A model generated the notes under the pieces. That model was not told where the DNA came from. It made no database searches and saw only the letters and a list, made by a program, of their open reading frames with translations. A stretch of DNA of 64,000 nt from Promethearchaeota archaeon. Lineage in GTDB: Archaea; Asgardarchaeota; Thorarchaeia; Thorarchaeales; Thorarchaeaceae. The stretch spans positions 32,001-96,000 of the forward strand of contig WJMJ01000079.1 in assembly GCA_014728035.1 (NCBI GenBank). The letters run 5' to 3'. A program made the translations under genes and the position numbers. Below are positions 18,748 to 62,041 of the stretch, one piece after another (position 1 is the first letter of the stretch; the number at the start of each line of letters is the position of its first letter).

Positions 18748-19464
18748 ATGGCAGAGGAAACTCTTAGCGAGGTAGCAGCATTACTTGAAGAAGCCTTAGC
18801 AGTTCATCATTCAGTTGAACACGTTGTTCTTAGCACTAAGGAGGGTGTGGTAGTTGCCGCTGTTTCGCGAAAAGAGAATGCTGACCCAAATGTTATAGCT
18901 ACTGTTACTGCCGCTCTGGTATGGGGTGGAAGTACTACTCTTGTCCAACTTGGTCAAGTGAAACCTTTCTATATTTCTCATGTTACAACTAATCAGGAAA
19001 TCATTACATTTGTTCAACCTAACTATAACCTTGCTGTTGTTTTACTTCATGATAAATCGTTTACTCTAAAAGCTCATATCTCCGAATTTCAATCTTTAGC
19101 AACACGAATTGAATTGCTAATGCAATCTGCAGTAATTTTTGGAGAACAGACAATTCTTGGTAGAATTGTAGAACAAGTTCCAGATATTACTCAAGCTATG
19201 CTACTCACTCAGGAAGGACTGCCACTTGGTTCTGTTGGATTCGATGAAGATATTGAAGTTGCGGCTCTTGTCAGTTCTGTTTTCGCAAACGGTCTAACAT
19301 TTTCTCCTGACACATCTAACATCACGGTTCATACAACAAATATGACCTTACTAATTGCAAGACTCGATGAAACAAGATTGGTATGTATTCTTTGTAGGGG
19401 TCAGAATCCTGATGAGATATGTACTAACGTTTTGAGTGTTATTAGAGACTACAGTGAATATTAG
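18748..19464 (+). CDS. tandem roadblock/LC7 domain protein
   Basis: Two repeats: VVLSTKEGVVVA...IATVTAAL and MLLTQEGLPLGS...VAALVSSV. Confidence 0.8.
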   Translation: MAEETLSEVAALLEEALAVHHSVEHVVLSTKEGVVVAAVSRKENADPNVIATVTAALVWGGSTTLVQLGQVKPFYISHVTTNQEIITFVQPNYNLAVVLLHDKSFTLKAHISEFQSLATRIELLMQSAVIFGEQTILGRIVEQVPDITQAMLLTQEGLPLGSVGFDEDIEVAALVSSVFANGLTFSPDTSNITVHTTNMTLLIARLDETRLVCILCRGQNPDEICTNVLSVIRDYSEY

Positions 19465-39364: not shown

Positions 39365-39523
39365 TACCACAACTCCAATGGATAGTTCTAGTATTTCATG
39401 AACTACCCTCAATCACTCTAAGTTTCTCTAACCGATATATCAATGCTATTGTGATGTGTTTTTACTCCAATTGATTGGAGTTTATATAATTGGAACAGAC
39501 ATAACTTGTGACTACTTTATCTG

Positions 39524-44071: not shown

Positions 44072-44539
44072 TTGTTAGTGAATGATCATTATAACTCATG
44101 TTGGTCTGGTGACATCGAATTACCGGATGTATCTTGGCTATCTGGTGCAAAAGCTGGATTGCAAATATCTGAAGGTAGAAGACCCGATTGGAACTGGGAT
44201 GAGTTTCTTTTAGATCTCGATGCGATGCTTCAGTATTTTAGTGATATTCAATCTGCGTTTCCTGGACAGGCACCATTGTTAGATGATGGTATTGTAGGTT
44301 CAATTCTTACCGCTCTCGGTGGTTATATCAGTGTTACCGGATATCTCCTTGATGATGGGTTATTCTTCAGGGTTTCTAAGAAATATCATGAAGATGTTAG
44401 AATTGCACTCTCAGGATATGATGTCCAACCTTATTGTGATGGGTTGATTATTTCTAAAACGGATCTGGCCAGACTTCAAAATATTTTGCCAATCCAAGGA
44501 CCGCTCTTTGAATTGATATACCAGGAGGTAATGACTTGA
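44072..44539 (+). CDS. hypothetical protein (operon gene 2)
   Basis: GAGGAGGT RBS then TTG/GTG just after the gene 1 stop; ends overlapping the radA start. Confidence 0.7.
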   Translation: MLVNDHYNSCWSGDIELPDVSWLSGAKAGLQISEGRRPDWNWDEFLLDLDAMLQYFSDIQSAFPGQAPLLDDGIVGSILTALGGYISVTGYLLDDGLFFRVSKKYHEDVRIALSGYDVQPYCDGLIISKTDLARLQNILPIQGPLFELIYQEVMT

Positions 44540-45600
44540 CTGATTTAGAAGCAGTAAGTGGTGTTGGTCCTGCAGCTGCAAAGAAATTGCGAGAAGCTTT
44601 TGTCACCACTGCCGAATTGCTAGCAGTTCAAAATCCTATTGAACTTCAAACAAAGACAAAGCTGGGAGAAGGTACTGTTGATAAAATCATCAAGAGTGCT
44701 AGAGAGCTTGTTGGCACTTTTGGGTTCAAGAGTGGTTTGGAAGTGGAACAATCGATGGCTGACCAGCCAAGATTGTCAACTGGTATCTCTAAACTCGATA
44801 AGGAATTATTGGGTGGAATAGAAGCGGGATCTATTGTAGAATTTTTTGGACCGTCACGAGGTGGAAAAACCCAATGGGTTGCACAACTTGCAATCATGGC
44901 TCAGCTTCCAGCTGACAAAGGGGGTCTTGATGGTAGAGTCCTATGGCTTGATAGTGAGTCATCTTTCAAACCTTGGATAATTAGAGCCAACGCTTTACGT
45001 TTTGGAGTTGATCCCGATGTAGCGCTTGGTAATATTGGAAGAGCTCAAATAATTCTTAGCAGTCAGCTTATGGATTTGTTTGACACCATACCTCGACTAT
45101 GCGCTGAGAATGACTACAAACTGGTCATTGTTGACTCTCTCACTGGATTATTTCGTGCTGAGTATACTGGTTTGGATATGCTGAAAGTTCGACAACAGGA
45201 TATGAATGGCATTCTAAATACCATGCGACGAACTGCTTCTGCAACTGAGAGTATTTTTGCTTACACAAATCATGTCATGGCAAAAATTTCCCTTTATGGT
45301 GGTAATCCCAATGCCCCAGTTGGCGGACACATAATATCCCATGCATCCGATTATCGATTCTATACTCGCAGGTCAAAGAAGGATAAGCGTAAATTGGATT
45401 TGCAGGATAATGCGGGAGTACCAGAATTCAGTATGGAATTCACAATTGGATGGGGCGGCTTTTACGAATCAAGCTCTGAAAAGAAAGAAGTTGAACCAGA
45501 GATTAAGGCTTACTTCAAGAAACATGGGTATGCAAAACCAGAATTAATTGAAGAAGACGAAACAGAAGAAGAAGTGGTTACTGCAGGTGATTCAGAATGA
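44536..45600 (+). CDS. radA: RadA/Rad51-family recombinase (divergent full-length paralog)
   Basis: N-terminal HhH (GVGPAAAKKL), FKSG, Walker A GPSRGGKT, LVIVDS, FRAEY, RQQ, GGHIISHAS. Confidence 0.9.
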   Translation: MTDLEAVSGVGPAAAKKLREAFVTTAELLAVQNPIELQTKTKLGEGTVDKIIKSARELVGTFGFKSGLEVEQSMADQPRLSTGISKLDKELLGGIEAGSIVEFFGPSRGGKTQWVAQLAIMAQLPADKGGLDGRVLWLDSESSFKPWIIRANALRFGVDPDVALGNIGRAQIILSSQLMDLFDTIPRLCAENDYKLVIVDSLTGLFRAEYTGLDMLKVRQQDMNGILNTMRRTASATESIFAYTNHVMAKISLYGGNPNAPVGGHIISHASDYRFYTRRSKKDKRKLDLQDNAGVPEFSMEFTIGWGGFYESSSEKKEVEPEIKAYFKKHGYAKPELIEEDETEEEVVTAGDSE

Positions 45601-46040
45601 AAATGGAACGAGGTATGTTTCGGATATATCGTTGTCCTCAATGCAACAACATAGGGTATGCACGAGTTGAATCTGAAGACGATCTTTCTGCATGTAGTCT
45701 TTGCAGAGGAATAATCTTGCATGAACAAGGCACACTCTACGCTCCAACGGTCCAGGAGTCGGTTGGGATAGTGCGAGAATTAGTTATTCTTTCAAAAGAT
45801 GAACGAGAACCTCTTAGGTCACCAAGAGGACGCGGTCTGCGCAAAAGAATTCTCCAAATCGTATCATCACTCACTGAACTCAATCGCGGAAGGCCTGTTA
45901 AACTGAAAGAGATACTCCAAGAGTGTGTCGATGCTGATATCGACCTGGAGCGGGCTTTATCATTTCTTGAAGTTCTTGAACAAGAAGGGATTCTCGATAA
46001 GCTCGATTCCAAAGTTATTCTGAAACGTGAGGTAATATAA
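45597..46040 (+). CDS. Zn-ribbon + winged-helix protein (MCM C-terminal WH-like)
   Basis: CPQC...CSLC, then ILQIV...PV.L.EIL......I..E.A...L..L..EG. Confidence 0.7.
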   Translation: MKMERGMFRIYRCPQCNNIGYARVESEDDLSACSLCRGIILHEQGTLYAPTVQESVGIVRELVILSKDEREPLRSPRGRGLRKRILQIVSSLTELNRGRPVKLKEILQECVDADIDLERALSFLEVLEQEGILDKLDSKVILKREVI

Positions 46041-46041
46041 A

Positions 46042-46677
46042 ATGGCAGAATCCAGCTCAAAGACAAAGTCAGATGTTATTTGGGTCCCGAGAACACCAAA
46101 GACAGTAAAACGTAGTTCTATGATAAATCTAGTTAATCTGCTCCTTAGAGAAACTACGCATAGAATCACTATTCTTGAAAAAACCGAAGAACCAGACCCA
46201 GAGTTATTTGTAGTAACTAGAATAGAGTGGAGAGATGCAGATATTCGAAAACCACTACTTCCACAATTACCACGATTGCTCTCGCTATTAGAAACCCTCA
46301 GAGGCACACGAGGTGTTCCTACAGAGATATATTTGGATAGTACTGATGGTATTGCGGTATATCTACCAACAAACGTAAGAATCTCTACTTTGCCCGAAAA
46401 ACCCAAAGAATGTGTTCACTATTTGATGGATCTAGTGGAAACTCAAATTGAACATACTTTTTCAACAATGAGAGAAGTGGAAAAATACTTCTGGATGAAT
46501 GCTAGGAAGAAGGGATTTAGCCCAGACATTGTTGCTAAAATTGACAAAAAAGAGAAATATTTTGATTCTTCAGAGCATGTATTTAGATTTCAATATCTTA
46601 TGCAGAGATATTTCTCAATAAGATTCAGAATTCATTCAAGTGAATCTTGTCTTCGTGTGGAGGCTGGTGGGTGTTAG
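46042..46677 (+). CDS. hypothetical protein (operon gene 5)
   Basis: 211-aa ORF with GAGGT RBS. Confidence 0.75.
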   Translation: MAESSSKTKSDVIWVPRTPKTVKRSSMINLVNLLLRETTHRITILEKTEEPDPELFVVTRIEWRDADIRKPLLPQLPRLLSLLETLRGTRGVPTEIYLDSTDGIAVYLPTNVRISTLPEKPKECVHYLMDLVETQIEHTFSTMREVEKYFWMNARKKGFSPDIVAKIDKKEKYFDSSEHVFRFQYLMQRYFSIRFRIHSSESCLRVEAGGC

Positions 46678-48641
46678 TAGATAAAGCTGACCCCCTTCTA
46701 TGGTTCCCTTATGAGCCAAGACCACATCAGGACAAGGCTGTGAAATTAGCTGCTGAAGTATATCGTTCAGGAACTGTTGGATTGCTGTCTGCGGATTGTG
46801 GTGTTGGTAAAACAATAGCAGTTCTATCTGGATATTTAGCTGCAAGGTCAGAGGATTCTACATCAAGATTATTCGCATTAACACGAACACATTCTCAATC
46901 AAAAGTCTTTGAAGAAGAGCTTGAGATTCTAAGAGAGCAATCACTGACCATTACAGCCACATCCATGGTATCAAGAATTCATGTATGTCCCATTAAAGCT
47001 AAGATGTCAACAAGCACTTCTAAGGGATTCACAAAAGCATGTGCAAGTATGGTTAGAATTGGCAGATGTAGTCATTATTGGAATATGTACAAAAAACAAA
47101 AAAACGAAGGAAAACTAACAATTCGGGAAAATATTCGTGTTCTTTTAGAAGAGCTTCTAGATACTGGTGTTGTAAGCCGGGAACGAGCTGAAGACTTTGC
47201 CCAACTACATTCTCTATGTCCATATGAGGTATTACGATGGTGTGCTCGAAATAGTCGTGTTATCATTGGTCCTTACAGCTATGTATTTCGTTCACGCGTT
47301 CGTGACGCATTACTTTCTTCTATGGGTGTTCAACTTCACGAAATAGATTTGTTAGTAGATGAAGCTCATAATCTGCCATCTCATGTTCTTGACTCTGAAA
47401 CTGCGCGGTTAAGTGGAGAAGATTTGAAGTATCTGAAGGAACATAGCAAAGAACTCACCAAAGAAACTGGAGTAAAGTGGATTAGTGAGGTTATTGATTT
47501 TCTTTGGGAAACTCTCATGGTTAACTTGGATTCTTTAGGTAATCGAAGAGAAAAGAGATTGAACAAATGGGATGTCATGCCCAGATTCATTGATCAAGAA
47601 AATCTATTTCTTCTAGTTCAATCTCATGACTTGACGATAGGAGATCCTGAAAATGCCTTACATGCAGAGAATCCATTTGATAGACTTGTTGATTTTCTCC
47701 TAATTGGTAGTAAAGCAATTGAAAGTGAAGATTGGCACGTGTCACTTAATCTCTCGAAGAATTGGCAAAATGAAAGGTCACCGTTGCATACTAATTTAGC
47801 TATACGCCCATTAAACGCAGCTGGATTGACCGCTCCCATACTTCGGGGAGCAAGATCTGCATTATTAATGAGTGGAACACTACGCCCTCTGGATCACTAC
47901 TCCCGTCTACTTGGAGTTTCGACTGCTTTGAAAGAAGACCTTGAAAGTCCATACCCCAAAGGAAGTAGATTGGTCCTTATCGATAAGAAACTATCAACAA
48001 AATATAAGAAAAGGAATTCCACACTTTGGCGGAAATTGGCTGAAAGAATTAATACCGTGCTTCAGACCATGCCCGCAAATAAGAGTGCTATGATAGCTTT
48101 TCCAAGCTATAATATGATGCATGAGATTTTGAGTTATTCTATAGACACTGGTTTCCGTGGGAAAATAATTGAAAACCGAGGAGCAAGACTTGAATTTGTT
48201 ATTGAGGCTATTGAAGATTCTCCTCAAGCTGTCTTTTGTGTATACGGTGGAAAGTTTAGCGAAGGTATTGATATTGTTAAAGATGGTTCAAGTCTAATTG
48301 ATTTGATAATTGGTGTTGGAATTCCTTTTAGTCCACCAACAAGCTATCATCAAGCTATTCAAGACTGGTATAACCGAAAATTCGGTGATGGTGCTGGATA
48401 TTATTATTCTTCTGTGGTACCTTCACTAAGACAGGTTGCCCAACTTATTGGTCGTTTAAGGAGGTCTCCTTCAGACTGGGGAGTTGTCACTCTCTTAGAT
48501 AATCGATTTTTGAGGTATTTGAGCATCCTTGGAGATGGTATTGTATCTGATATTTGGCCATATGATGAAGTTAACGAGATTCGTTCTGCTATAGACGCAT
48601 TTGTTGAAATGAGAGTAGGTGATTGTTGTGAGAATAGCTAA
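46671..48641 (+). CDS. XPD/Rad3/DinG-family Fe-S 5'-3' helicase
   Basis: FPYEPRPHQ, GVGKT, RTHSQ, four Fe-S Cys (VCP, KAC, RCS, LCPY), DEAHN, SGT, FPSY, GKFSEGID, QLIGRLRR. Confidence 0.93.
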   Translation: MLVDKADPLLWFPYEPRPHQDKAVKLAAEVYRSGTVGLLSADCGVGKTIAVLSGYLAARSEDSTSRLFALTRTHSQSKVFEEELEILREQSLTITATSMVSRIHVCPIKAKMSTSTSKGFTKACASMVRIGRCSHYWNMYKKQKNEGKLTIRENIRVLLEELLDTGVVSRERAEDFAQLHSLCPYEVLRWCARNSRVIIGPYSYVFRSRVRDALLSSMGVQLHEIDLLVDEAHNLPSHVLDSETARLSGEDLKYLKEHSKELTKETGVKWISEVIDFLWETLMVNLDSLGNRREKRLNKWDVMPRFIDQENLFLLVQSHDLTIGDPENALHAENPFDRLVDFLLIGSKAIESEDWHVSLNLSKNWQNERSPLHTNLAIRPLNAAGLTAPILRGARSALLMSGTLRPLDHYSRLLGVSTALKEDLESPYPKGSRLVLIDKKLSTKYKKRNSTLWRKLAERINTVLQTMPANKSAMIAFPSYNMMHEILSYSIDTGFRGKIIENRGARLEFVIEAIEDSPQAVFCVYGGKFSEGIDIVKDGSSLIDLIIGVGIPFSPPTSYHQAIQDWYNRKFGDGAGYYYSSVVPSLRQVAQLIGRLRRSPSDWGVVTLLDNRFLRYLSILGDGIVSDIWPYDEVNEIRSAIDAFVEMRVGDCCENS

Positions 48642-49221
48642 AGAGAATACATATCTACTGACATTCATCGGAGCTATCCTAGTTGGTTTTACTATTAGGA
48701 TGATTTTCTATGAATCGCCATTTGAAATTATTATTAGTATTCTAGGTATCTGTATAATGATTGGTTTCATTGTGCTTCTATGGACCCGTTCGAACCCACA
48801 AGTATTATGGAATAAAACTTACAAATGCTTGGCTATTAATCGTAAATTTAGTGTGTCGGTCTTTGCTGGATGTACATTGGATAGTGTACCTCTTGGAATT
48901 GATCTCAGTCACTCTGCAAAAAAGGTGCTACGTGCACTTTCAACAAGATTGAATGATGACAGTGAATTTGAGGTTAGTTTCTTTGTGACTCGACCAAATA
49001 ACTCCTCCAGTACCCGTGTAGGTTTATTTGTTTCACGTAAAACCATGCGTTTACTTGATGGGGTTTCTCGTTCTGATTCTCTTCTAGAACAAATCAATCA
49101 AGATGTGATGACATTGCAGTCTGCTTTGAAGACTGCTTATCCTCATACTCCAATATCTAGGGCTAGCGCTGAAGATTTGATACTTGCAACAAATGGAGGT
49201 GTACTTTCTCATGAAGTCTAA
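48628..49221 (+). CDS. membrane protein, 2 N-terminal TMs + cytoplasmic domain
   Basis: Hydrophobic hairpin at the N-terminus; overlapping start with GGTGA RBS. Confidence 0.7.
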   Translation: MRIAKENTYLLTFIGAILVGFTIRMIFYESPFEIIISILGICIMIGFIVLLWTRSNPQVLWNKTYKCLAINRKFSVSVFAGCTLDSVPLGIDLSHSAKKVLRALSTRLNDDSEFEVSFFVTRPNNSSSTRVGLFVSRKTMRLLDGVSRSDSLLEQINQDVMTLQSALKTAYPHTPISRASAEDLILATNGGVLSHEV

Positions 49222-49513
49222 GATTAGAACTTCTATACAAATTTCTAGAGAAGTATCGCCTAATGAATTAATGGAATTCTTGAGAGTCGGACATGGGTAT
49301 GAGTGGACAATTCTTCTCCAACATCCAAGATTGCTCGCTCATGGAAAACCACCATCAACAAGATTACCTGAGTTATTGATAACCGGATGGGATACTATGA
49401 TTGTATCTGGAGGTCTCAAAGAGTATCCTGATAGAATCAGAAATATGATTGAAGTGCTTCGCAGAAGGTCTCAACGGAGCTATTCATCAACTGGAGGGAT
49501 AATTCATGGGTAG
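49211..49513 (+). CDS. small hypothetical protein
   Basis: GGAGGT RBS, ATG 49211, overlaps both neighbours. Confidence 0.7.
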   Translation: MKSKIRTSIQISREVSPNELMEFLRVGHGYEWTILLQHPRLLAHGKPPSTRLPELLITGWDTMIVSGGLKEYPDRIRNMIEVLRRRSQRSYSSTGGIIHG

Positions 49514-51845
49514 ACCTTTGATATTGGGTTCAGAACCAGAGAAGGATCCATTAGATTACCGGTCAAAAAGAAAAGTATCAATTAGTACTGATGCTGAAAT
49601 TGATTGGGATGATAGAACACTAGAAAAAAGATATTCTGTTCCCATAGTGTTTGGATTGTTCATTTTACTATGTGTTTTGGCAAATCCTCTTTTCATGCTT
49701 GTAATTTCTATGAGTATTCTCTCAATAACTTACATTCTCACTAAAGTTCCAGATTCTCATGAGATTGAAACTATTAAGAATAGTCAATGGGTTTTATTGA
49801 AACCACGAAAAGATTTTCTTACAGAAACTGTTGATTCAGTGCTATATGTCGATAATGATGAAAGCCGTCATCTCGTTGCATTGAAAATTGATTCACCAAG
49901 CAATTTGCTTTTCGGGTCATTAGGCGGTTTGATTCGTGCTTTGGATACGGAACATGGATTTTCTCTCTGCATATCGATGCATACAGTTTCTATTGAACAT
50001 GTTCTTAATCAGGATCGAATTCATTCTACGAAAGAAGAATTTCTCGAATCAATAGGAACTTCTGGCAGGTCTCAATTCATATCAATCAGAGGTGGATTGT
50101 GGACTGCAAAAGTATCCTTAGTTGGCCATTTGAAACAACTCGATGATGTAATCACATTCGAATCTGCTGTACATGGTGGTGTGCCAACTTCCGGATGGTG
50201 TAGACTAGATGATCATGAATTGTTTACACTTCTCGCTTTTAATACCGTACTATCCTACCCTTCAGGATTTTATGCTCTTGGACACGAATTATCAGAATGG
50301 CTCGTTCAACTTCCAAGTGAATTGGCACCTGAGGTCGGTAGTAATGTGCCTAGCGAATTTCTATCTCCAATAAAAACAACAAATCCTGATTACTCGCTTG
50401 GTGTAGCTATCAATCCTGAAACCCTTCAAACCGGGCCAGAAGTTGGGTTTACTCATACTGACCTTATCAATGGAACTTTGGTATGTGGAGGAACAGAGTC
50501 AGAGAGAAAGCGTATCTTAGCATTGCTAATTCAAGAACTTCTGAAATCGGATAAGAGGGTTCTTTTTGTTACAAGCAATAGAAGTAACAAGGATTTAGCT
50601 GGAATACAAGAGGATTCTATTTCCCTAGACTTGGGTGGTGATTTCGTATTGAATCCAGTTGATCCTGATTTGGTTCCACGAACTGAATATGTTGGGCAAT
50701 TAATATCAGCTCTTGAGATTCTTGCAGGGGAGAATCTTTCAGGTGCTGCAGATTTGGAAATTGCACTCAATCGTGTAGTTGCACTTGGCAACACCACTGT
50801 GGCTGACATTCGATTTGATACTGCAGAAGAACTCATGGAGAATCCTTCATTTGAGCAAACATCACAGACTTCATCTCCTAGTAGAAAATCGCTAGCAGGC
50901 CTTGATGCAATAAGATTGTTGCATGAAGGATCTGGTGCAAGTGCATTCTATGGAACTCAGACAATTCCCATGCAAAGACTTACTCAAATCCCATTCACAG
51001 TCATATCAGTGAACTTGGGCTCAGTTGAATTGAATACCTTTGCTTGTGATTTGTTGATGATGAAACTTGCTGGACTTGAGCATGATTCAGATTTTGTTAT
51101 AATCTTTGATGAGCCCCTGAACCTGGTTGCTAGAAATCACAGACACCACTACAGAATACCTTGGATGGATTTCATAGCAAAACGAATGAAAAAACGTGGT
51201 CCTTTTGTTATTGCAATGGAACATCCTGCAGACTTCTCACCTACCACTATAGGTCTTTTGACATCTTGTGTTTCAGCCCGGTTGCGAGAATCAGCTGATG
51301 TGAAAGTATCTATTGACCTTCTTGGATTAAGTGTTATACAAACTGGAATGCATAGTAAGGCTCGTCATTCATCGCGTGAAACATCTTTCTTACGAGTAAT
51401 TCCTGATGGTGTTGCAGTACTTGCTAACACTGGAGGAGAGTTAGGATATCCAGTTAAGCTAGATGATATGCCAGAAATTGTATACGAGTTCTCTAAGGTC
51501 AACCTATCCGAACGATTACCCGATTTGAGCATAGCCCATGAAAGTAGCCATGATTCTTCTTCTTTAATAGAACATGTAATGGGTCGTGACATTAAGCATG
51601 GTGTTTCAGTTCTTCGACTTCTTCAAAGATATGAACCTCTTACTCTTGAATCTATTAAGAAATTCATTTCTACAACTACAGAAACTGCGCTAGATATTGA
51701 GAGCATATTATTACGTCTTGAGCAAGGGAGCATGATCCTAAAGGGGCATGAAGTTCACAGTGGCGTTTCCTATATGAACTATAGATTAACTATGAAAGGC
51801 ATAATGGCATTGAGACAGTATGATGGGGAGGGTTCTAGTATTTGA
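49506..51845 (+). CDS. membrane-anchored HerA/VirB4/FtsK-like ATPase, Walker A degenerate, with C-terminal winged helix
   Basis: 2 N-terminal TMs; TLVCGGTESERK at the Walker A position; LNPV; VIIFDEP; AMEHP; C-terminal YRLTMKG wing. Confidence 0.7.
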   Translation: MGRPLILGSEPEKDPLDYRSKRKVSISTDAEIDWDDRTLEKRYSVPIVFGLFILLCVLANPLFMLVISMSILSITYILTKVPDSHEIETIKNSQWVLLKPRKDFLTETVDSVLYVDNDESRHLVALKIDSPSNLLFGSLGGLIRALDTEHGFSLCISMHTVSIEHVLNQDRIHSTKEEFLESIGTSGRSQFISIRGGLWTAKVSLVGHLKQLDDVITFESAVHGGVPTSGWCRLDDHELFTLLAFNTVLSYPSGFYALGHELSEWLVQLPSELAPEVGSNVPSEFLSPIKTTNPDYSLGVAINPETLQTGPEVGFTHTDLINGTLVCGGTESERKRILALLIQELLKSDKRVLFVTSNRSNKDLAGIQEDSISLDLGGDFVLNPVDPDLVPRTEYVGQLISALEILAGENLSGAADLEIALNRVVALGNTTVADIRFDTAEELMENPSFEQTSQTSSPSRKSLAGLDAIRLLHEGSGASAFYGTQTIPMQRLTQIPFTVISVNLGSVELNTFACDLLMMKLAGLEHDSDFVIIFDEPLNLVARNHRHHYRIPWMDFIAKRMKKRGPFVIAMEHPADFSPTTIGLLTSCVSARLRESADVKVSIDLLGLSVIQTGMHSKARHSSRETSFLRVIPDGVAVLANTGGELGYPVKLDDMPEIVYEFSKVNLSERLPDLSIAHESSHDSSSLIEHVMGRDIKHGVSVLRLLQRYEPLTLESIKKFISTTTETALDIESILLRLEQGSMILKGHEVHSGVSYMNYRLTMKGIMALRQYDGEGSSI

Positions 51846-54049
51846 CAACGGTGACAGAAACTCAACATCCAGTAGAAAAAATTCTTCAATCTATTGGGAT
51901 TATACCTCGAGGTGTCCAAGATGATGCAATTAATGCTGGAATACTTGAAGGAAAAAGTATCATGGTTTCAAGTCCAACCGGGTCAGGAAAAACCTTGGTC
52001 GGGGAGATAGCACTACTTAGAGCAACGTTGGACTCCAAAAAAGGACTTTATCTTGTTCCACTTCGAGCACTTGCTGTTCAAATTGCTAAGATATTGGATG
52101 AACGGTATGGTACTCAAGGTATTTCAATTGGTTTGAGTACTGGAGATTTTCACACGACAGGTGAAGAACTTTCATCATATGATATCATTGTAACAACTTA
52201 TGAGAGAGCTGATTCTTTACTTCGGAGAAATGCATCTTGGCTGCCATCACTTGGAACAGTTGTGATAGATGAGGTACAGACATTATCTGATAGTTATAGA
52301 GGAGCTAGATTAGAGTCTACAATAATTCGACTCAAACGATTGGTATCTGATTTGCAAATGATTGTATTATCAGCAACTATAGATGCACCAGAAGAAATAG
52401 CTGAGTGGTTGAATTGTGAATTAATTGTTTCTAATAAACGCCCAATACCACTTCATTGTAGAATCATTTCAACTAGCAACAAATCTGCGGCTATGAAGGA
52501 GATAGCTATGACTACTGTTCAGAGCAATGGGCAGTGTTTACTTTTCCATCGAACCCGTAGAGCAGCAGAATCTCAGGCTGTCAAACTTGCAGCTGAAGTT
52601 GGTCGTCAGTTCACAACTGAGGAAAAAAAGAATATTGATGCCGAATTGGAATCGGTAGTGAATTGGGATGTACGATTACCTGCTGATTTGAAAGCGCTCC
52701 TTCATGATGGTACTGCTTATCATCATGCAGGATTGGACTATCAAGCAAGACGCCTAATTGAAGAACTTTTCAAGAGAGGTATGATTAGGGTAATTTGTGC
52801 CACAACAACTTTGGCATCGGGTATTAACCTTCCAGCACGAACTGTTGTTCTTGCATCTGTTAGATCTCCCTCGAATCATAACACATTCTTATCTGGAAAT
52901 CAGATTCATCAGATGCTAGGAAGAGCTGGTCGTCCAGGATTTGATAACAGAGGAATCGGTGTTATTCTTGTTGGCAGTTCTGGAGAGGCTGATTTAGTTC
53001 GTCATAAATATTTCAAAACCATTACGGGAATTGATGGTAAAACAAAGGAGCTTCATCCAAAATATGATAGACTATCTAGTAAACTGAATCAGGCAAATGC
53101 TCTCACAGAGCAATTACTTGTGTCCTTTGACCTATACGGCTCCTCCACTATTGAAACTATTAAAAATGGTATTTTCTCCGAGTCCTTTTTGATGTTCTGT
53201 AGCGTTCGTGATACTAAATCTCCGCATCGTATATTACAACTTGGAGAGATTTCTGCAATTACCTCTATTGAACGTCATGCTTTACAAGATGCAATTCTAT
53301 CTGCCAGACAAAATGTTCTTGCATCAGTAAAACTTAGAGAGAAGACTGATTCCGTTATAGGAGGGATAGTAACTGTCTGGCAGGGTGGGAACTTCACATC
53401 AAGATTCTCAGCTAAATTATCACCAGATGGAACTGTGGAAGGTCCTATGTGTTCATGTGGCTCTCCATTGGATTCCTATGGAATCCTTTGTCCACATTTG
53501 GTAGCTTTAGGATTTGCTGCATCAAAAGAACTTGGAGCTATAGCAGATTATGTAATTCCTTTGGCACTATCAGAAACAAGTCCATTGGGGGTACTTACAA
53601 AATTATCCCTTGTTGAAGGTGGAGAGGATGGAGAATATATCATAACACATCTTGGAAGAGTTGTTAATCGACTCTATCTAAGCATCCCAACAATCCGAGA
53701 AATGATTGCTATCCTTCCATTCACTGAATCATCTGGAGACCTTCTCTGGTTATTGCGGCATCTTGTTGCGATTGAATCGGGTTCCACCTTAGATGAATCA
53801 TATGATAATCTGGTAGCTGGTGTAGCCAGCACTGACATTGAGGTTAGCAAACTTGCAGAGAATCTTGGATTACATGTGGGCGATGCATTTGGACTATTAG
53901 AAACCTCAAGATGGCTTCTTTCTGCAATTTCTGCCATAAGTGAAATTGGTGGATTTGAACAATTAACAACAAGATCGCTGGATCTATTAGAATCGCTAGA
54001 TCGAAGTCTTGGAAAAAAAAGTGAAAATATCCGGGAGAAAGAGAAATAA
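51842..54049 (+). CDS. Ski2/Hel308-like SF2 helicase with inserted SWIM zinc finger
   Basis: PTGSGKT, PLRALA, TTYE, DEVQ, SAT, YHHAGL, TTTLASGINLPA, QMLGRAGR; CSC-x10-CPH. Confidence 0.92.
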   Translation: MTTVTETQHPVEKILQSIGIIPRGVQDDAINAGILEGKSIMVSSPTGSGKTLVGEIALLRATLDSKKGLYLVPLRALAVQIAKILDERYGTQGISIGLSTGDFHTTGEELSSYDIIVTTYERADSLLRRNASWLPSLGTVVIDEVQTLSDSYRGARLESTIIRLKRLVSDLQMIVLSATIDAPEEIAEWLNCELIVSNKRPIPLHCRIISTSNKSAAMKEIAMTTVQSNGQCLLFHRTRRAAESQAVKLAAEVGRQFTTEEKKNIDAELESVVNWDVRLPADLKALLHDGTAYHHAGLDYQARRLIEELFKRGMIRVICATTTLASGINLPARTVVLASVRSPSNHNTFLSGNQIHQMLGRAGRPGFDNRGIGVILVGSSGEADLVRHKYFKTITGIDGKTKELHPKYDRLSSKLNQANALTEQLLVSFDLYGSSTIETIKNGIFSESFLMFCSVRDTKSPHRILQLGEISAITSIERHALQDAILSARQNVLASVKLREKTDSVIGGIVTVWQGGNFTSRFSAKLSPDGTVEGPMCSCGSPLDSYGILCPHLVALGFAASKELGAIADYVIPLALSETSPLGVLTKLSLVEGGEDGEYIITHLGRVVNRLYLSIPTIREMIAILPFTESSGDLLWLLRHLVAIESGSTLDESYDNLVAGVASTDIEVSKLAENLGLHVGDAFGLLETSRWLLSAISAISEIGGFEQLTTRSLDLLESLDRSLGKKSENIREKEK

Positions 54050-55608
54050 TGGCAATTTCAGATGAGAGAGAATCAAAAATTGTATCAACTGATACAACTG
54101 ATGAAATAGAAACAGAATATGATATTGTGAAAGCCCTAGAGGCAACTGGACACCTGACTCATACTTATGAAAATGGTTTGGTTCTTGGTGTACGACTGGA
54201 AGGTGTGAAAGGTACGCGTGGTGTACATTTGGATATAGTCCACATCCTTGACCTTAGGAAAGCAGAGTTTGGTAAAACTAGTTTAGCCATGCGGGCTGCA
54301 GTTTTAGAGAGTATGAATAGAGACCTCGAATCCATTCTTGAAGATGTTGACCTTCATACATTTTTGGATGCCCAGACGATCACTACTGCTTGGGGTCGAA
54401 TTCAGATTCCTCTTCTTGGGTCTGGAGACCATCCTTCCAAATCTATGATACACGAAACTCGAACGGTGTATGTCATTGTAAAGGATACAAAATCTTCAAA
54501 GGACTTTTCTTGGCTAACTGAATCCAAAAGGGTCGTTACCCCTGAAGAATTTGCCTTTTTACGTCTCACTGATACCAAGTCACTTAGAAGTGAATTGAAA
54601 AACCAAATCACCTCAGAAAAATGGAAGTTGCTTGAAAAGGGATTTAGGGATAGCTGGCTAGGAATCATATTTTCTTCAATAATATTACTTGGCATAGGAA
54701 CAATTGTTGGCATTCTTTTTGCCAATCAAGGAAATATGGCTGCTCCAATCATTTCAATTATTATTGGTTTGATGGTTGGAGGTGCATTCTTGAGTTCATC
54801 AAGGACAAGTCTTTCTGAATTTCGGAAGATAGTTTCAGAAGAGGAAAGAAAATTATCTGAAATGGGAGATAAAACAAGAATAGAGTTATCCGTACTTGAA
54901 AATCAAGATGACATGCGCCTCTTGGGCGATTTGAATTTCATAGTGTCTCCCTTAATGGCACAAGCTGCAAATGCTCTTTCGAGTGCTGAATATGATAATG
55001 CGGTCAGTTCGGTTTGTTCTGTGATGGATGAATGTATGCGTTTTTCACCGAGCGACCTAGATACAATAAAAAGTTCACTTGTTGGAGGTGATGAGGGATT
55101 GGCAAAATTTGTTGGGTTCTTTGCTGAGCTTGGGGCTGATGAATATGAGACTGATTTGGCATTGGCTTATGTAGCTTTAACTGGCTATGCAATCGACCCT
55201 ATTTCTGCTGAAGAAGTCATAACTCATATTGCAACCCTCAATAATGCCCTCTATCATATTGGAGCTTTGCGCCCAGATGTGAAGGAGATTATTGATGATT
55301 TATTGAATTCGCGTGCAGGGAAGGAAGCTGTAGAGTATTTAAACGAAGAGCTAAGTAAACCGTTAGAACCAATTCCCGATCCAGTAGAAATCGATGACGG
55401 TGAAAGCGAAGACCACTTGAAAGACACTTCAACCATTTCAAGTGAGATGGATTCATTAAAGGAGTTCATAACAGAATCGGAAGCAACGCAAGTTGAATCA
55501 GGTGAACCATTAGAAGATGTGGATTTAGATGACATATCAATGACAGGGTCTGATATCGTTTCCAGGATAAATATGGATATAACACCGGAGGATGAAGAAT
55601 CTGATTAG
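54049..55608 (+). CDS. membrane protein (central TM hairpin, coiled coil, acidic C-terminal tail)
   Basis: Two TMs around aa 203-250; D/E-rich C-terminus. Confidence 0.75.
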   Translation: MAISDERESKIVSTDTTDEIETEYDIVKALEATGHLTHTYENGLVLGVRLEGVKGTRGVHLDIVHILDLRKAEFGKTSLAMRAAVLESMNRDLESILEDVDLHTFLDAQTITTAWGRIQIPLLGSGDHPSKSMIHETRTVYVIVKDTKSSKDFSWLTESKRVVTPEEFAFLRLTDTKSLRSELKNQITSEKWKLLEKGFRDSWLGIIFSSIILLGIGTIVGILFANQGNMAAPIISIIIGLMVGGAFLSSSRTSLSEFRKIVSEEERKLSEMGDKTRIELSVLENQDDMRLLGDLNFIVSPLMAQAANALSSAEYDNAVSSVCSVMDECMRFSPSDLDTIKSSLVGGDEGLAKFVGFFAELGADEYETDLALAYVALTGYAIDPISAEEVITHIATLNNALYHIGALRPDVKEIIDDLLNSRAGKEAVEYLNEELSKPLEPIPDPVEIDDGESEDHLKDTSTISSEMDSLKEFITESEATQVESGEPLEDVDLDDISMTGSDIVSRINMDITPEDEESD

Positions 55609-56302
55609 TGTTTCACAAATATCAGAACTTGTTCTTTTTCCTGGTTTGATGCATATTTGGGGAAAAGCGGGTTCTGGAAAAACAAGCTTGGCAGTCGCTC
55701 TTGCTTCTTACGCGTCAAGAAAAGGGCCCGTAGAATGGATATGTACTGACGGGAAGAAGCTATTCCTTCCTCAATTGAAGAAGAATATCATACAGCAGAG
55801 GGGTAATATTGATACAGTCACTGTACAGATACCTCAATCCTACCATGAGAGCCAACAAGCGATTCTGAACCTAGTTGAAGATATATCTCCTCTTACAAAG
55901 TGTATTGTAATCGATTCGATAACTAGAGCCCTAGATATGAGTCATGATGAATCACAACTCTGGGGAAGAGAACTGATCGAAGAAGTATTACCAACCCTTG
56001 CAAGTTTAAGTTTAGCAAGAAGAATTCAAATTATCATTACTAGTGAGATACGAGAAATTCCAGACAGAGGACCAGTTCCAGTTCTACATGATGTTATTAA
56101 TCGCTGGTCTGATGTAGAACTTGCTGTCAGAAAATCAGTAAATCCAAGAGTTTCAGAGATTTTCCTCTATTCTTCTAATTCTCCAGAATTCAGTCTGATA
56201 GGTTCTATCTCACTGAATTCTAATCAAGTAGCATCACTTCATGATACAGATACCGAAAAAACAATTGGAGGACATAGTAGTGTTCAGCAAGGGACTGTTT
56301 AA
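55592..56302 (+). CDS. RadB/Rad51-paralog-like RecA-fold ATPase
   Basis: HIWGKAGSGKTSL, WICTD, CIVIDSI, ITSEIR. Confidence 0.82.
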   Translation: MKNLISVSQISELVLFPGLMHIWGKAGSGKTSLAVALASYASRKGPVEWICTDGKKLFLPQLKKNIIQQRGNIDTVTVQIPQSYHESQQAILNLVEDISPLTKCIVIDSITRALDMSHDESQLWGRELIEEVLPTLASLSLARRIQIIITSEIREIPDRGPVPVLHDVINRWSDVELAVRKSVNPRVSEIFLYSSNSPEFSLIGSISLNSNQVASLHDTDTEKTIGGHSSVQQGTV

Positions 56303-57245
56303 GCTTGTTGGAATTGGAATTACCATTGCTATTGCTTTACTCATTGGATCAAATATTATCACCTCGATTATAGCAATTGTCAGTGAAGCTAAAGCAGGTA
56401 ATCCTTTCCCCTTGATTTTGATTTACATATCCACAGTAGTGATTGTTGTTATCTCTCGTTTTTTCGATGACAAAGCTATAACTGGTGTTTTATTGCGAAT
56501 CAGTTCACTTATTGCAATCTCTTATTCTGGGATTTTGTCTTTCGTAATCGGAATTCCTTATGGGATAGCTATCTCTCTAACATTCTTTGCACTCACGACA
56601 CTGTTTTTCGCAGCGCTATATGACCCGTCTGAGATTAGGAGCTTTCTGAATTCTGATGAATATCTAAGCCAGTTAAGTAAAATTAGGAAATGGACTACAG
56701 GAGATTCTTATCAAAGTGCAGGGATTTCAACAACACTATTGAATCTACATAGGGTTCTACTAATTTCTCAAGATGATCGATCAAAAGTTATTAGCTTACT
56801 CAAGAGTCGGCCCTATTTGCCAATTTCACTCCACCATTTTGTGGATTGTGATGTTGTGATTCTATCTATCAATCCTGAAGAAACCAATCAAACATGTAGA
56901 ATCATCGCACTTTTCAAAGAACTGCAAATTGATTCAGCAAAAGAAGCTCCCAATCTTATGGCTGAAGCTATATTATCAATTCCTTTACTTGATGAGCAGA
57001 ATGGGATCATTAAGAGCGATTATAGAGTTGTAAAGTCCGAATCATCGGTTCAAAATCTGCTTGAAACGTTTCCTATACGAATGATAGTCATTGGGCATCC
57101 TGAAGGATTGCAAGTTCTCCTTCCAGAACATGAAATTCTTGGTGTTGACTCTCAACCACTTCCAGCGGGTCATGAAAATGAGATTTTACTAATGCATAAT
57201 TTTCAATCGATACGGGAGGTATCAAAAAATGCGAATATCACTTAG
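56280..57245 (+). CDS. membrane protein, 4 N-terminal TMs + cytoplasmic domain
   Basis: GGAGG RBS + GTG at 56280; four hydrophobic helices. Confidence 0.72.
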   Translation: MFSKGLFKLVGIGITIAIALLIGSNIITSIIAIVSEAKAGNPFPLILIYISTVVIVVISRFFDDKAITGVLLRISSLIAISYSGILSFVIGIPYGIAISLTFFALTTLFFAALYDPSEIRSFLNSDEYLSQLSKIRKWTTGDSYQSAGISTTLLNLHRVLLISQDDRSKVISLLKSRPYLPISLHHFVDCDVVILSINPEETNQTCRIIALFKELQIDSAKEAPNLMAEAILSIPLLDEQNGIIKSDYRVVKSESSVQNLLETFPIRMIVIGHPEGLQVLLPEHEILGVDSQPLPAGHENEILLMHNFQSIREVSKNANIT

Positions 57246-57945
57246 TGCTTTTGATGTTGATGATATAGAAAATCCAATAATTCGTCTTTATCCGGAGGTC
57301 CTTCATCGTTCTGTAGGTCGATTGTTACTTCCTGGACAAATCAGTTTGTTGTACGGTGAAACTAAAGCACCTCTTACTCGATTGGCACATTTTATTACTT
57401 GTTCTATCGCAGAGAAACATCAAGTGCTATTTCTTGATTCGAGCAATAATTATAATGCCTCTCTTGTTAAACGGTATTTAGAAAGATTTCAGAATCGTAG
57501 AGATGTTCTAGAAAACATTCTAGTAGGAAAAGTGCTCTCTCTTTCTGATTTAGTTAATCTAACTGAACAAGTAGATGAGATTCAGAATCTGCGCTGTATT
57601 GTCCTTGATAGTTTAAGTGGAGTATTGAATCTTAGTGGCTCTCCTGGTGCCATCGAGCGACAGAGATTTCTTTTCAAAACTCTTCACGTTATGAGAAAGC
57701 TAGTCAATTTAACAGACATTCATTTTGTATCTACGAGTTATTCAACTCAAGATTGGGATACTGGAGAAAGAAGGCCTATAGGAGGTAATGTTCTAGCTCA
57801 TAATCTGGATTCTATTCTTCGAGTTAATATTATTGATGAGAAAAAGAAAATTTTGCAAATAGAAATCGAGCGCAGCTCAATGCCCACTAATCATGATATT
57901 TTTGCTCTGAAAAGCTCAATATCTGGATTTAGAACTATTTCGTGA
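57229..57945 (+). CDS. RecA-fold Rad51-paralog-like protein, Walker A degenerate
   Basis: PGQISLLYGETKAPLT, FLDS, IVLDSLS, ERQR, PIGGNVLAH. Confidence 0.8.
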   Translation: MRISLSAFDVDDIENPIIRLYPEVLHRSVGRLLLPGQISLLYGETKAPLTRLAHFITCSIAEKHQVLFLDSSNNYNASLVKRYLERFQNRRDVLENILVGKVLSLSDLVNLTEQVDEIQNLRCIVLDSLSGVLNLSGSPGAIERQRFLFKTLHVMRKLVNLTDIHFVSTSYSTQDWDTGERRPIGGNVLAHNLDSILRVNIIDEKKKILQIEIERSSMPTNHDIFALKSSISGFRTIS

Positions 57946-57955: not shown

Positions 57956-58945
57956 ATGGGTGTAAAGGGTTGGAATTTTATTCCTTGGCGATGGGTTGAA
58001 CTTGATGAAATCATTCAAGGCCCGATTGCCATAGATGTACCAAATTATTTGACTCGTAGATTAACTGTATTCAGATCTCAAAGAATACAAAATGGAAGAA
58101 TTCCTCTTCAGCATGTGAGTGTGATTTTGAGCATCATCAAATCCGCATTGGCACACAAAATAACACCTCTATTTCTTTTTGATGGCCCTCCTGAATCGCT
58201 GAAACGAAAACCTAACCCCTCACTCTTGATCGAAGCTCAAAATTTGTACAAGGAGTTTCGAAAAACCAATGATGCGTTTGATGATTCGATTTCTGAACGT
58301 CTCTATAATAGTCCTGCTATTAGAATGTATTTTGTTATGGAACATACAAAGGATATTGCGTCTTATTGTGGAATTCCTGTAATTAGGTCTCCAAGTGAAG
58401 CAGAACTTTTTGGTGCATTACTCTGCAAACAAAAATTAGCTACCACAGTTGTCTCAAATGATGTTGATGCATTACTATTTGGAAGTCATCATGTAACCAA
58501 ACAATTGCAATTTTCAAAAGAAATGATTCATCGAACAACAATTAGTGATTTGAAAGATGTCTTGAACCTTAACCTTTCACAACTCAGAGATTTAGCTATA
58601 CTATGTGGGTGTGATTTCTACCCTTCTGGACTGAAAGGAATTGGACCAAGAAAAGGTGCTGCTTTACTCAATCGTCATGGGAATCTCTCTAACGTATTAG
58701 ATTCACAAGGAATTTATGGTGTTGAGAAAGAGGATATGATTCGAGCACGTGAAGTTTTCGACGAAGCTAGTTACCTCTCAATTCATGGAGTTAATACTTC
58801 TCTGCGCCCTCCATTAGTTTCAAAATTGGAAAACATTTTGCATCCTGTTCTTGGTTCAGATCGAGCCAACACGTGGGCTTATGAAATGGTATCATTATGG
58901 AAAAGGTTCAGAGTGAAGCAGGCAACATTAGATAAATGGATTTGA
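57956..58945 (+). CDS. fen: FEN1/XPG-family structure-specific nuclease with PIP box
   Basis: MGV, IAID, FDG, EAE, NDVDALLFG, GCDF, GIGP, C-terminal KQATLDKWI. Confidence 0.88.
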   Translation: MGVKGWNFIPWRWVELDEIIQGPIAIDVPNYLTRRLTVFRSQRIQNGRIPLQHVSVILSIIKSALAHKITPLFLFDGPPESLKRKPNPSLLIEAQNLYKEFRKTNDAFDDSISERLYNSPAIRMYFVMEHTKDIASYCGIPVIRSPSEAELFGALLCKQKLATTVVSNDVDALLFGSHHVTKQLQFSKEMIHRTTISDLKDVLNLNLSQLRDLAILCGCDFYPSGLKGIGPRKGAALLNRHGNLSNVLDSQGIYGVEKEDMIRAREVFDEASYLSIHGVNTSLRPPLVSKLENILHPVLGSDRANTWAYEMVSLWKRFRVKQATLDKWI

Positions 58946-61883: not shown

Positions 61884-62041
61884 AAATAGATACCAAGTCC
61901 CGGGTAGATTCTGATTTTTCAGGTCATGGAGGTCCCCCCTCATTTTCGACTAAACCACGCCAAAATAACTCCAACTATAATTTCCGGGACACCCTCTTTA
62001 TTTCGTATGTTCATCTTGGGAGGTATATTCTTGATACGTAA
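61880..62041 (+). CDS. possible 53-aa bridging ORF
   Basis: GTG overlapping the upstream TGA; its TAA overlaps the downstream gene start. Confidence 0.3.
   Translation: MKIDTKSRVDSDFSGHGGPPSFSTKPRQNNSNYNFRDTLFISYVHLGRYILDT

Follow-up and report, generated by a model that had tools for sequence, protein, structure and literature searches.

What is a Hel308-type helicase doing with a zinc-finger module inside its winged-helix domain, and why does it share a row of genes with two small RecA-fold proteins? The questions are raised by a stretch of 64,000 nucleotides (nt), hereafter the window, from a Promethearchaeota archaeon of the Thorarchaeaceae (GenBank assembly GCA_014728035.1, contig WJMJ01000079.1, positions 32,001 to 96,000), in which an open reading frame (ORF) of 735 residues (51842..54049, + strand) carries a Ski2-like helicase core together with a SWIM signature and is followed by the genes for two RecA-fold proteins that we call RadB1 and RadB2. 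An initial annotation of this DNA proposed an archaeal counterpart or precursor of two eukaryotic mediator systems, namely the helicase HELQ with its RAD51 paralogs and the Shu complex. The answer toward which we lean, if only slightly, is a different one: the helicase and the RecA-fold paralogs would be parts of one self-contained, dispensable operon of 13 genes, and their likeness to HELQ and the RAD51 paralogs would be a matter of analogy only. The window is an ordinary piece of Thorarchaeota-type Asgard chromosome, with housekeeping genes around the region and an even GC content (0.36–0.42), and the closest relatives of the helicase are Thorarchaeota by source name. Genomes, contigs, loci and families are given by handle (G, C, L and f numbers) where they must be told apart; the family labels are coded, f1 standing for Thorarchaeaceae.

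Is the helicase a working motor? The ORF matches Pfam DEAD (PF00270, 104 bits) and Helicase_C (PF00271, 42.7 bits), has the Walker A motif GSGKT at residues 47–51, and finds its best NCBIfam models among those of Hel308 type (NF040935, NF002654); these matches span residues ~8–442 only and stay far below the equivalog cut-offs (335.4 bits vs 887; 284.7 vs 1200). Among solved structures it comes closest to A. fulgidus Hel308 at 247 bits, followed by P. furiosus Hjm with 234, Brr2 with 224 and S. solfataricus Hel308 with 220, and POLQ, at 140 bits, falls below the archaeal Hel308/Hjm proteins and Brr2. Motif II ends in a glutamine, Q146, that is invariant across our alignment of 25 Thorarchaeota homologs (50–75% identity); Thorarchaeaceae share the form DE[IV]Q with two further families, and other lineages have DEIH or DEFH.

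Hel308 and HELQ are described as five-domain enzymes conserved from archaea to humans, and domain 5 of Hel308 is its brake and annealing domain. The window helicase comprises RecA1, RecA2 and what appear to be a split winged helix and a short ratchet-like domain 4; three separate stretches of Hjm (2zj2; residues 400–454, 458–507 and 574–645) are covered when the family profile is aligned to it. Aligned with canonical Asgard Hel308s, it misses ~32 residues from the start of domain 4, and the domain-4 model PF21280, which scores 102–122 bits with canonical Asgard Hel308, reaches only E = 0.019. The Pfam scan of the window helicase gave no match to HHH_5, the HhH domain 5, and in the alignment the protein ends before the HhH region, where the canonical proteins of loci L067 and L068 have HHH_5; among 16 SWIM helicases scanned, one, the Heimdall-type protein of L054, keeps the HhH. 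By its motifs and alignments, then, the protein is a Hel308 paralog that is predicted to be motor-competent and lacks domain 5.

What has been added is also clearly delimited. Compared with the two canonical Asgard Hel308s (L067, L068), where the alignment leaves a gap, the winged-helix domain holds an insert of ~105 residues (residues ~483–588; 53288..53605, + strand), and in the profile alignment to Hjm the insertion likewise amounts to ~109 positions, placed after residue 454 and before residue 458 of Hjm. Within the insert lies the signature C537-x-C539-x10-C550-x-H552 (53450..53497, + strand), and after it the motif T602.LG605......LY612 picks up again. In these respects the initial annotation was accurate: the finger CSC-x10-CPH maps exactly to the place it gave and, by the alignments with canonical Hel308s and with Hjm, lies inside the winged-helix domain; the T.LG...LY motif resumes behind the insert in the alignment with canonical Hel308s; motif II reads DEVQ (residues 143–146); and the C-terminal HhH domain is absent, with no HHH_5 match and an alignment that ends earlier.

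All four SWIM ligands are invariant across the 25 Thorarchaeota homologs, and in a phylum-wide alignment of 27 C-terminal halves (16–55% identity) they account for four of the eight invariant columns. Conservation of the insert matches that of RecA1 (the majority residue has a mean frequency of 0.70 vs 0.72), and RecA2 (0.69), the N-terminal winged helix (0.63) and domain 4 (0.59) are less conserved than the insert. The Pfam SWIM model (PF04434, gathering threshold 19.6 bits) gave no match to the window helicase even at E ≤ 1; it hit the correct place in 4 of 16 family members (L093, L082, L087 and L095), at sub-threshold scores of 14.9–18.1 bits. A further link runs through a Hel308-like paralog in the same genome, in which the CxC..CxH motif passes PF04434 (21.3 bits vs 19.6) and to which the helicase family aligns with the motifs in register (hhalign 99.3%, E 4e-20). 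The spacer of 10 residues is also inside the range of n = 6–16 that is typical of SWIM domains, CxCxnCxH (PMC5727457). The assignment of the insert as a SWIM-family zinc-type module is thus supported indirectly. The module, constrained as it is, lies in the winged-helix domain, the part of the enzyme that recognises the substrate. The paralog just mentioned (G000:C25, L005:547-2766, − strand; 739 aa) is a second Hel308-like ORF, with a canonical SWIM (CSCESWKYQGVKRQRLCKH), that we take for a pseudo-helicase because its Walker A motif and motif II are degenerate; next to its orthologs in two other genomes of the Thorarchaeaceae (L095, L096) there is neither a RadB-like nor a HerA-like gene.

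Might the window gene simply be the Hel308 of its lineage? It is the best Hel308 match of its own genome, and we considered that it could be the lineage's only one; this idea was dropped, as canonical SWIM-less copies exist. We checked five Asgard genomes from families with no match to the SWIM-bearing half, and in four of them the best core match was a canonical Hel308 of 728–747 aa with DE[VC]H and without CxC..CxH. Two of these four ORFs are cut by a locus or contig end, and both complete copies have the C-terminal HhH tail, domain-4 scores of 102–122 bits and strong HHH_5; a SWIM paralog is present in two of these genomes as well. With a canonical query, full-length ORFs of 631–738 bits came up in one closed f16 genome and three further Thorarchaeaceae genomes, all of which have the SWIM helicase as well. 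Overall, canonical SWIM-less Hel308 was found in G117, in three genomes of the Thorarchaeaceae and in four Asgard families besides, and the two types coexist in G313, G362, G320, G117, G082 and G012. In the window's own assembly (97.9% complete, 173 contigs) a canonical Hel308 was not found, the window gene being the only match, at 214 bits; since the assembly is fragmented and 97.9% complete, this result does not show absence. Judged from these comparisons, the helicase is an extra, Asgard-specific Hel308 paralog and not the lineage's Hel308.

How far does this paralog reach? Among 1.84 billion representatives, no more than 19 are related to its C-terminal half at E ≤ 1e-3, and seven distant full-length relatives all carry the motif, three of them being named Hel-, Heimdall- and Hermodarchaeia by source. 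Matches to the C-terminal half of the window helicase occur in 159 of 400 Asgard genomes, and a broader 27-sequence profile, with which canonical Hel308 also scores (roughly 1e-6 to 1e-13), matches 352 of the 400 at E ≤ 1e-5; by our reading of the table, this profile reaches E ≤ 1e-20 in one or more genomes of 23 out of 33 families. These proteins make up a second, widespread Asgard branch of Hel308 in which the regulatory domain 5 has been swapped for a SWIM zinc module. None of the best-ranked full-text matches of a literature search joins a SWIM domain or zinc finger with Hel308 or a Ski2-like helicase, and in the excerpts of a 2024 survey of archaeal Ski2 helicases, zinc fingers are mentioned only for ASH-Ski2 (PMC10946056). 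Two smaller observations concern the two Hel308 types. Genome G057 (f11, locus L086) holds the only strong SWIM-helicase match among the 22 genomes of its family, with a long-spacer motif of f22 type, and mis-binning or gene transfer is possible there; in L067, L069 and L070 (f13, f11 and f8), the canonical Hel308 directly adjoins a large ORF whose C-terminus is, by eye, MCM winged-helix-like.

What company does the helicase keep? Every gene between 43315 and 58945 lies on the + strand, and between 44536 and 58945 the genes are never more than 10 nt apart, most stop codons overlapping the next start, so that RadA2 through FEN1-2 form a tightly packed, operon-like block of 13 genes. Gene 1 is RadA2 (44536..45600, + strand), a spare full-length RadA-type recombinase (HHH_5 plus PF08423, 179.5–181 bits); the block also contains XPD2 (46647..48641, + strand; DEAD_2, Helicase_C_2 and HBB), a spare XPD/Rad3-type helicase, and closes with the spare flap endonuclease FEN1-2 (57956..58945, + strand; XPG_I and XPG_N). 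Each has a better counterpart elsewhere in the genome. FEN1-2 scores 118 bits with TIGR03674 (cut-off 352) and the canonical FEN1 at G000:C25:159830 scores 451.9; XPD2 scores 171.7 bits with TIGR00604 (cut-off 247) and the canonical XPD at G000:C25:48138-50003 scores 311.7, over the cut-off; the main RadA at G000:C45:15033 scores 315.7 bits with PF08423; and a RadB-like gene elsewhere reaches 148 bits with TIGR02237, vs 41 and 45 for the two in the block. The block enzymes are spare copies, and divergent ones, of the core enzymes for recombination and repair. That better RadB-like gene adjoins the canonical XPD (G000:C25:46644-50003), an arrangement that mirrors the pairing in the spare block. 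The same assembly holds a bacterial-type RecA (G000:C70:4107-4682, L011:1324-2424; TIGR02012 462 bits, over cut-off), the cause of which may be contamination (estimated at 8.5%) or gene transfer.

The block is a single unit. The stretch A251 to P683 of the window, 16 genes with the 13-gene block among them, keeps its gene order in seven of the nine Thorarchaeaceae loci (nine genera), with gene identities of 22–87%; the two exceptions are L047, which is without the upstream genes, and L051, which is cut off by a contig end. The helicase and the RecA-fold paralogs keep their order in all nine loci from nine genera, and the flanks are kept in five genera, with A251 and a GH3-like gene on the upstream side and, on the downstream side, P683 and a gene for a 198-aa membrane protein. 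In G346 (92% complete; locus L105), which shares a genus with the block-bearing G362, GH3-A251-B167 runs directly into P683, and the 13 genes from RadA2 to FEN1-2 are missing. Across 86 f1 genomes, the helicase and the HerA-like gene of the block are both present in 53 and both absent in 27; five have the helicase alone and one the HerA-like gene alone. Five genomes of 91–93% completeness that lack both also lack RadB1 and RadB2 orthologs, their best RadB matches reaching 48–61 bits, the level of RadA or canonical RadB, vs 278–351 bits for true orthologs. The block is dispensable. Outside f1, local profiles of A251, B167, H109, M334 and P683 found nothing. The operon-like association of helicase and paralogs that the initial annotation had pointed out is thereby borne out, in 9 of 9 Thorarchaeaceae loci, recurrently beyond them and by joint absence from five near-complete relatives.

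Which proteins are the two paralogs? As had been noted, two RecA paralogs lie downstream of the helicase, one with an intact Walker A motif (GKAGSGKT) and one with a degenerate one (GETKAPLT); the two membrane-protein genes interleaved with them had gone unmentioned. RadB1 (55592..56302, + strand, 236 aa) and RadB2 (57229..57945, + strand, 238 aa) each consist of a RecA core of ~237 aa without the N-terminal HhH, the architecture of RadB. RadB1 keeps, besides its Walker A motif, the Walker B residue D108. RadB2 is without the Walker A lysine, as are all 10 orthologs (GPERAPLT), and keeps Walker B D127 and the motif GGNVLAH. With the RadB model TIGR02237 (cut-off 172.4 bits) they score 41.4 and 45.0 bits, and RadB2 scores 37.3 bits with PF08423; by these scores they are RadB-like proteins, not RadB equivalogs. 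In profile searches of the PDB, RadB1 matched RadB (2cvf, E 2e-5), RAD51D (E 1e-3) and other entries by the P-loop only, and RadB2 matched RadA/Rad51/Dmc1 (E 1e-15 to 1e-8), RadB (2.7e-8) and RAD51D (1e-7). No specific tie of either protein to a eukaryotic paralog clade came out of that search, RAD51D being the only one to appear; PHROGs gave a P-loop match only for RadB1. We also built a RadB tree of 35 rows, none dropped: in it the Thorarchaeaceae RadB1 proteins group, with weak support, with RadB-like genes that adjoin SWIM helicases in other families, to the exclusion of the genome's other RadB-like gene, and RadB2 forms a separate clade (100/100) that joins one f3 neighbour under a long-branch warning.

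Does the linkage extend past Thorarchaeaceae? We examined 29 non-f1 loci, counting as a RadB-type neighbour any ORF with at least 39 bits to the RadB1-family profile. Such an ORF lies within the locus in 10 of the 29 (f6, f8, f14, f16, f18 and f19), with weaker cases in three more (f3, f5 and f21); nine of these 13 neighbours were scanned, and for all nine RadB was the best NCBIfam model (52–132 bits, below cut-off). Profile search found a HerA-like ORF in 14 of the 29 loci, and in 25 of 35 non-f1 genomes with both coordinates listed the helicase and a HerA-like gene are on the same contig, 1.5–17 kilobases (kb) apart, the HerA-like gene being the most widespread neighbour of the SWIM helicase. 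FEN1 recurs in nine of the 29 loci, the Zn-ribbon protein of the block in seven and XPD in three. Asgard families repeatedly show the helicase linked to RadB-like and HerA-like genes. This SWIM-Hel308 branch, whose genetic ties are to RadB-type paralogs and a HerA-like protein anchored in the membrane, sits in the window in a dispensable operon of spare recombination enzymes. At locus L055 (f22), two other ORFs stand near the SWIM helicase: a 723-aa superfamily 2 (SF2) helicase with the helical-bundle insert PF21210 (13437-15608, − strand), ~2.2 kb downstream, and a 702-aa HhH-bearing protein (5770-7878, − strand), ~0.8 kb upstream.

The HerA/VirB4-like protein of the window (779 aa; 49506..51845, + strand) directly precedes the helicase and has one transmembrane (TM) segment near its N-terminus (residues 47–65, hydropathy scan). 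It has no Pfam match; the Atlas leads comprise clusters of DUF87/HerA_C type and one, at a score of 0.91, named 'DNA import protein CedB', a PDB profile search gave a HerA-type NTPase at E = 0.029, and its Loki-type homolog in L055 matches PF01935 (E = 9e-4). The family alignment has GGxxxER as consensus at the degenerate Walker A position and its invariants do not include a P-loop lysine, so the protein is probably not a motor; it is probably HerA-like and ATP-dead. The two interleaved membrane-protein genes, 54049..55608 and 56241..57245 (both + strand), stand between helicase, RadB1 and RadB2 with overlapping stops and starts, the second overlapping both RadB-like genes. The first encodes a 519-aa protein with a soluble N-terminal part, two TM segments at 206–248 (hydropathy scan), a helical C-terminal part and an acidic tail (30 D/E within the last 90 residues), for which we obtained no family match and no usable Atlas match. 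A proposed homology to the 2-TM proteins beside f16 helicases was rejected, hhalign giving 17% over the TM region only. The second encodes a 334-aa protein with four N-terminal TM segments and a soluble domain (hydropathy scan). Elsewhere, an overlapping polytopic membrane ORF lies directly 3′ of the RadB-like gene in eight of ten non-f1 loci, and hhalign compares such ORFs (f5, f6, f16 and f19) with the 334-aa protein at 73% (E 3e-5), a similarity that is suggestive only, because TM segments inflate hhalign scores. Scans of the block's proteins of no assigned family with PADLOC and PHROGs returned only generic core or P-loop matches.

How does this assembly of parts compare with known systems? 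With Hel308/Hjm (2p6r, 9b15, 2zj2, 2va8) and the HELQ/POLQ helicase domains it shares the Ski2-like SF2 core and GSGKT, in a group marked by a DExH-type motif II; unlike Hel308/Hjm, the window helicase has the ~105-residue SWIM insert, a shortened start of domain 4, no HhH domain 5 and DEVQ in place of DExH, lies far under the NCBIfam cut-offs and coexists, in relatives, with canonical Hel308. An accessory module within the winged-helix domain of a Ski2-like helicase has a precedent in the Mtr4/Ski2 arch (PMC10946056), which differs in fold and size and belongs to exosome-pathway RNA helicases. With RadB (TIGR02237; 2cvf/2cvh), the euryarchaeal RadA paralog, RadB1 and RadB2 share the core-only build of ~235 aa and a best or near-best family match; they depart from it in their low scores, the dead Walker A motif of RadB2 and the overlap of both genes with membrane-protein genes. 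In human cells HELQ physically binds the RAD51-paralog complex BCDX2 (PMC13623763), and both settings pair a Hel308-family helicase with RecA-fold paralogs; in the window, however, the link is genomic only, the helicase is a side branch beside canonical Hel308 without the N-HELQ region or domain 5, and the paralogs show no specific affinity to RAD51B, RAD51C, RAD51D or XRCC2. The Shu complex (yeast Csm2-Psy3-Shu1-Shu2; human SWS1-SWSAP1-SPIDR) shares with the window the CxCxnCxH SWIM motif, Rad51-fold proteins and the presence of one Rad51-fold protein without a working ATP site, yet Shu2/SWS1 is a small free protein whereas the SWIM of the window is a helicase insert, the spacer is 59 residues in Shu2 and 10 here, and the putative RadB-like partners here are coupled to membrane proteins. 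Finally, the archaeal DNA-import systems Ced and Ted, in which CedB is a VirB4/HerA-type ATPase (PMC9905601, PMC11868833), and HerA-NurA share with the block a TM-anchored HerA/VirB4-like protein and small membrane proteins next to recombination genes; they differ from it in that the window protein has a degenerate Walker A motif and sub-threshold similarity, and in that the block has no NurA. No CedA or pilin homolog turned up, and none was searched for. The block's membrane proteins, like its ATP-dead HerA-like protein, suggest a setting unlike that of the soluble eukaryotic mediator complexes.

How, then, might the 13-gene operon work? The helicase could be an unbraked 3′-5′ translocase or unwinder from whose winged-helix domain the SWIM zinc module would project, and its targeting may depend on docking of that module to a co-encoded partner. 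The Shu2 SWIM domain of yeast contacts the Rad51-fold protein Shu1 directly (PMC5727457), and since binding of a SWIM domain to a Rad51-fold protein is seen in that structure, the docking idea is reasonable as an analogy. The likeliest partner would be a pair formed by ATP-binding, active RadB1 and ATP-dead RadB2, with the HerA-like scaffold as an alternative; that the partner is a RadB-like protein we propose with considerable doubt. If SWIM does dock on a RecA-fold partner, we would have a prokaryotic case of the Shu-type contact between SWIM and a Rad51 paralog, as well as a simple recombinant system in which to study the coupling of a helicase to recombinase paralogs. The RadB-like proteins would in turn be tied to the membrane proteins by translational coupling; because their genes are coupled to membrane-protein genes, the machine probably handles DNA at the cell envelope, where RadA2, XPD2 and FEN1-2 could work with a membrane-tethered assembly. 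Anatomy, conservation, linkage and dispensability are what the analysis shows, binding partners, tethering and biological role are things that we infer, and a role in DNA import or exchange in particular is a guess we consider unlikely to be right.

A bolder version of the same idea takes the whole block for an Asgard envelope apparatus that imports DNA, or exchanges it from cell to cell, and then recombines it, with SWIM clamping the helicase onto a RecA-fold subunit. The membrane proteins and an ATP-dead HerA/VirB4-type scaffold would hold at the membrane a set of enzymes composed of RadA2, FEN1-2, the RadB1-RadB2 pair, a Hel308-type translocase without a brake and an XPD-type helicase that runs with the opposite polarity. 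We give this version little credence; if true, it would be an independent, possibly ancestral, use of the contact between SWIM and the Rad51 fold seen in the eukaryotic Shu complex. The opposite view would have the membrane genes as passengers, and the SWIM helicase and a RadB1-RadB2 heterodimer as a soluble module that regulates RadA or RadA2 filaments, or D-loops, in the cytosol and would be functionally analogous to HELQ-BCDX2. An ATP-competent protein paired with an ATP-dead one does resemble known paralog heterodimers. RadB-type paralogs are also known RadA mediators (PMC5480776), and RadA2 and RadA-like genes recur nearby; we nonetheless find a cytosolic module hard to believe in when the RadB-like genes of the window have overlapping membrane ORFs on either side, when 8 of 10 non-f1 loci place a polytopic membrane ORF after the RadB-like gene, and when the most widespread neighbour of all is a TM-anchored HerA-like gene.

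Could the operon be related to HELQ-BCDX2 and the Shu complexes by common descent, as was first proposed? The lineage is an Asgard one, the linkage of helicase and RecA-fold genes recurs across Asgard families, a published tree puts Asgard Hel308 with eukaryotic PolQ/HelQ (PMC10946056), HELQ binds BCDX2 (PMC13623763), and Shu2's SWIM domain contacts a Rad51-fold subunit (PMC5727457). A more natural ancestor of HELQ is nevertheless at hand in the coexisting canonical, five-domain, SWIM-less Hel308, and the window helicase scores 247 bits with A. fulgidus Hel308 and 224 with Brr2 but only 140 with POLQ. The paralog profiles are nearest to RadA/Rad51/Dmc1 and RadB, RAD51D appearing weakly; a PDB profile search with the insert-bearing half found no solved Shu2 or SWS1 chain at E ≤ 10; the SWIM module is an insert, and a PF04434 search of the window's own genome found no free SWIM protein; and the block is dispensable and partly membrane-bound. 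Common descent is accordingly improbable in our estimation, and the claim of a counterpart or precursor is not supported, given an extra paralog beside canonical Hel308, paralogs that show no specific affinity to a eukaryotic clade and the missing Shu2/SWS1 match; the operon is, as far as these comparisons go, not an ortholog of HELQ with its RAD51 paralogs, to which it is similar by analogy only.

Presence/absence polymorphism invites yet another thought, that the block serves in defence against viruses or belongs to a mobile element. The PADLOC models HamB (of Hachiman, which the helicase core resembles) and PDC-M23B match the core at 1e-43 to 1e-15, and a direct repeat of 31 nt (42468-42498 and 58978-59008), 20 nt of it exact (starting at 42479 and 58989), lies near the cluster borders. 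The PADLOC matches, however, cover the generic Ski2 core only, no HamA or other defence family was found by PADLOC in 12 neighbouring proteins, and PHROGs gave nothing except the P-loop match for RadB1. The repeat was weighed as the mark of an integrated island and rejected: it encodes a peptide, LQRIYD..DC, shared by the GH3-like gene and the C-terminus of the 683-aa gene (P683), 16 related loci do not have it, and five genera share the flanks (GH3-A251 and P683-dn198). No tRNA gene was found, Pfam scans of the cluster and its flanks found no integrase or recombinase family, and GC is even across the window. Defence or mobility strikes us as very improbable.

Several points weigh against the reading of the locus as one dispensable, membrane-linked operon that couples the helicase to RadB-like and HerA-like proteins. 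No RadB-type gene lies within the locus in 16 of the 29 non-f1 loci, including all seven f22 loci (several of the nine others are short contigs), and the RadB1 grouping in the tree is weakly supported (ultrafast bootstrap 84, SH-aLRT 56). The HerA-like assignment is made from sub-threshold matches and language-model leads, the membrane link from gene order and hydropathy only, and the 519-aa membrane protein has orthologs only in f1 and f2, with no relatives detected beyond. Adjacent genes co-vary trivially in fragmented assemblies, kin genomes are not independent, and one apparent absence, in G332, is a contig end inside XPD2. The CxC..CxH motif was present in 40 of 40 loci, a circular count because the loci were fetched by similarity to the SWIM-bearing half.

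The remaining genes of the block are small or of no assigned family. Gene 2 (45597..46040, + strand) encodes a small Zn-ribbon protein of 147 aa with two N-terminal CxxC pairs and weak Zn-ribbon matches only; by a local profile, its relatives adjoin the helicase or a RadB-like gene in L052, L053, L058 and L083, and DUF1922-type relatives occur in L055, L059 and L062. Gene 3 (46042..46677, + strand) encodes a 211-aa protein that had no match in Pfam, PADLOC or PHROGs and is present in eight of the nine Thorarchaeaceae loci and in L052, being missing from L047, where the upstream genes are missing, and from L051, where the contig ends inside the helicase. A 200-aa membrane protein with 2–3 TM segments by hydropathy scan (48619..49221, + strand) has weak relatives that adjoin HerA-like genes in L053, L058 and L079. 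Gene 6 (49184..49513, + strand) encodes a 109-aa protein that is kept only in Thorarchaeaceae loci and gave no family match in the Pfam/NCBIfam-type, PADLOC and PHROGs scans.

Elsewhere in the window, a SMC/Rad50-like ATPase of 431 aa, without the long coiled coil, adjoins a Mre11-like phosphoesterase (37005-39412, − strand); two further genera (L097, L098) also have the pair on the upstream side of the cluster, and in L105 it is found beyond P683 instead. Roadblock/LC7 is a family often counted among the eukaryote-like proteins of Asgard archaea, and two genes with this domain are present at 14392-14790 (− strand) and 18739-19464 (+ strand), with a weak Roadblock match also near the f16 cluster (L058:2726-3310). 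At the far end, an ORF of at least 691 aa (61926-63998, + strand), open at the window end, carries a prenyltransferase-type alpha-alpha toroid domain; giant surface-type proteins that combine alpha-alpha toroid and Ig-like domains stand near the SWIM helicases in L052, L053 and L055.

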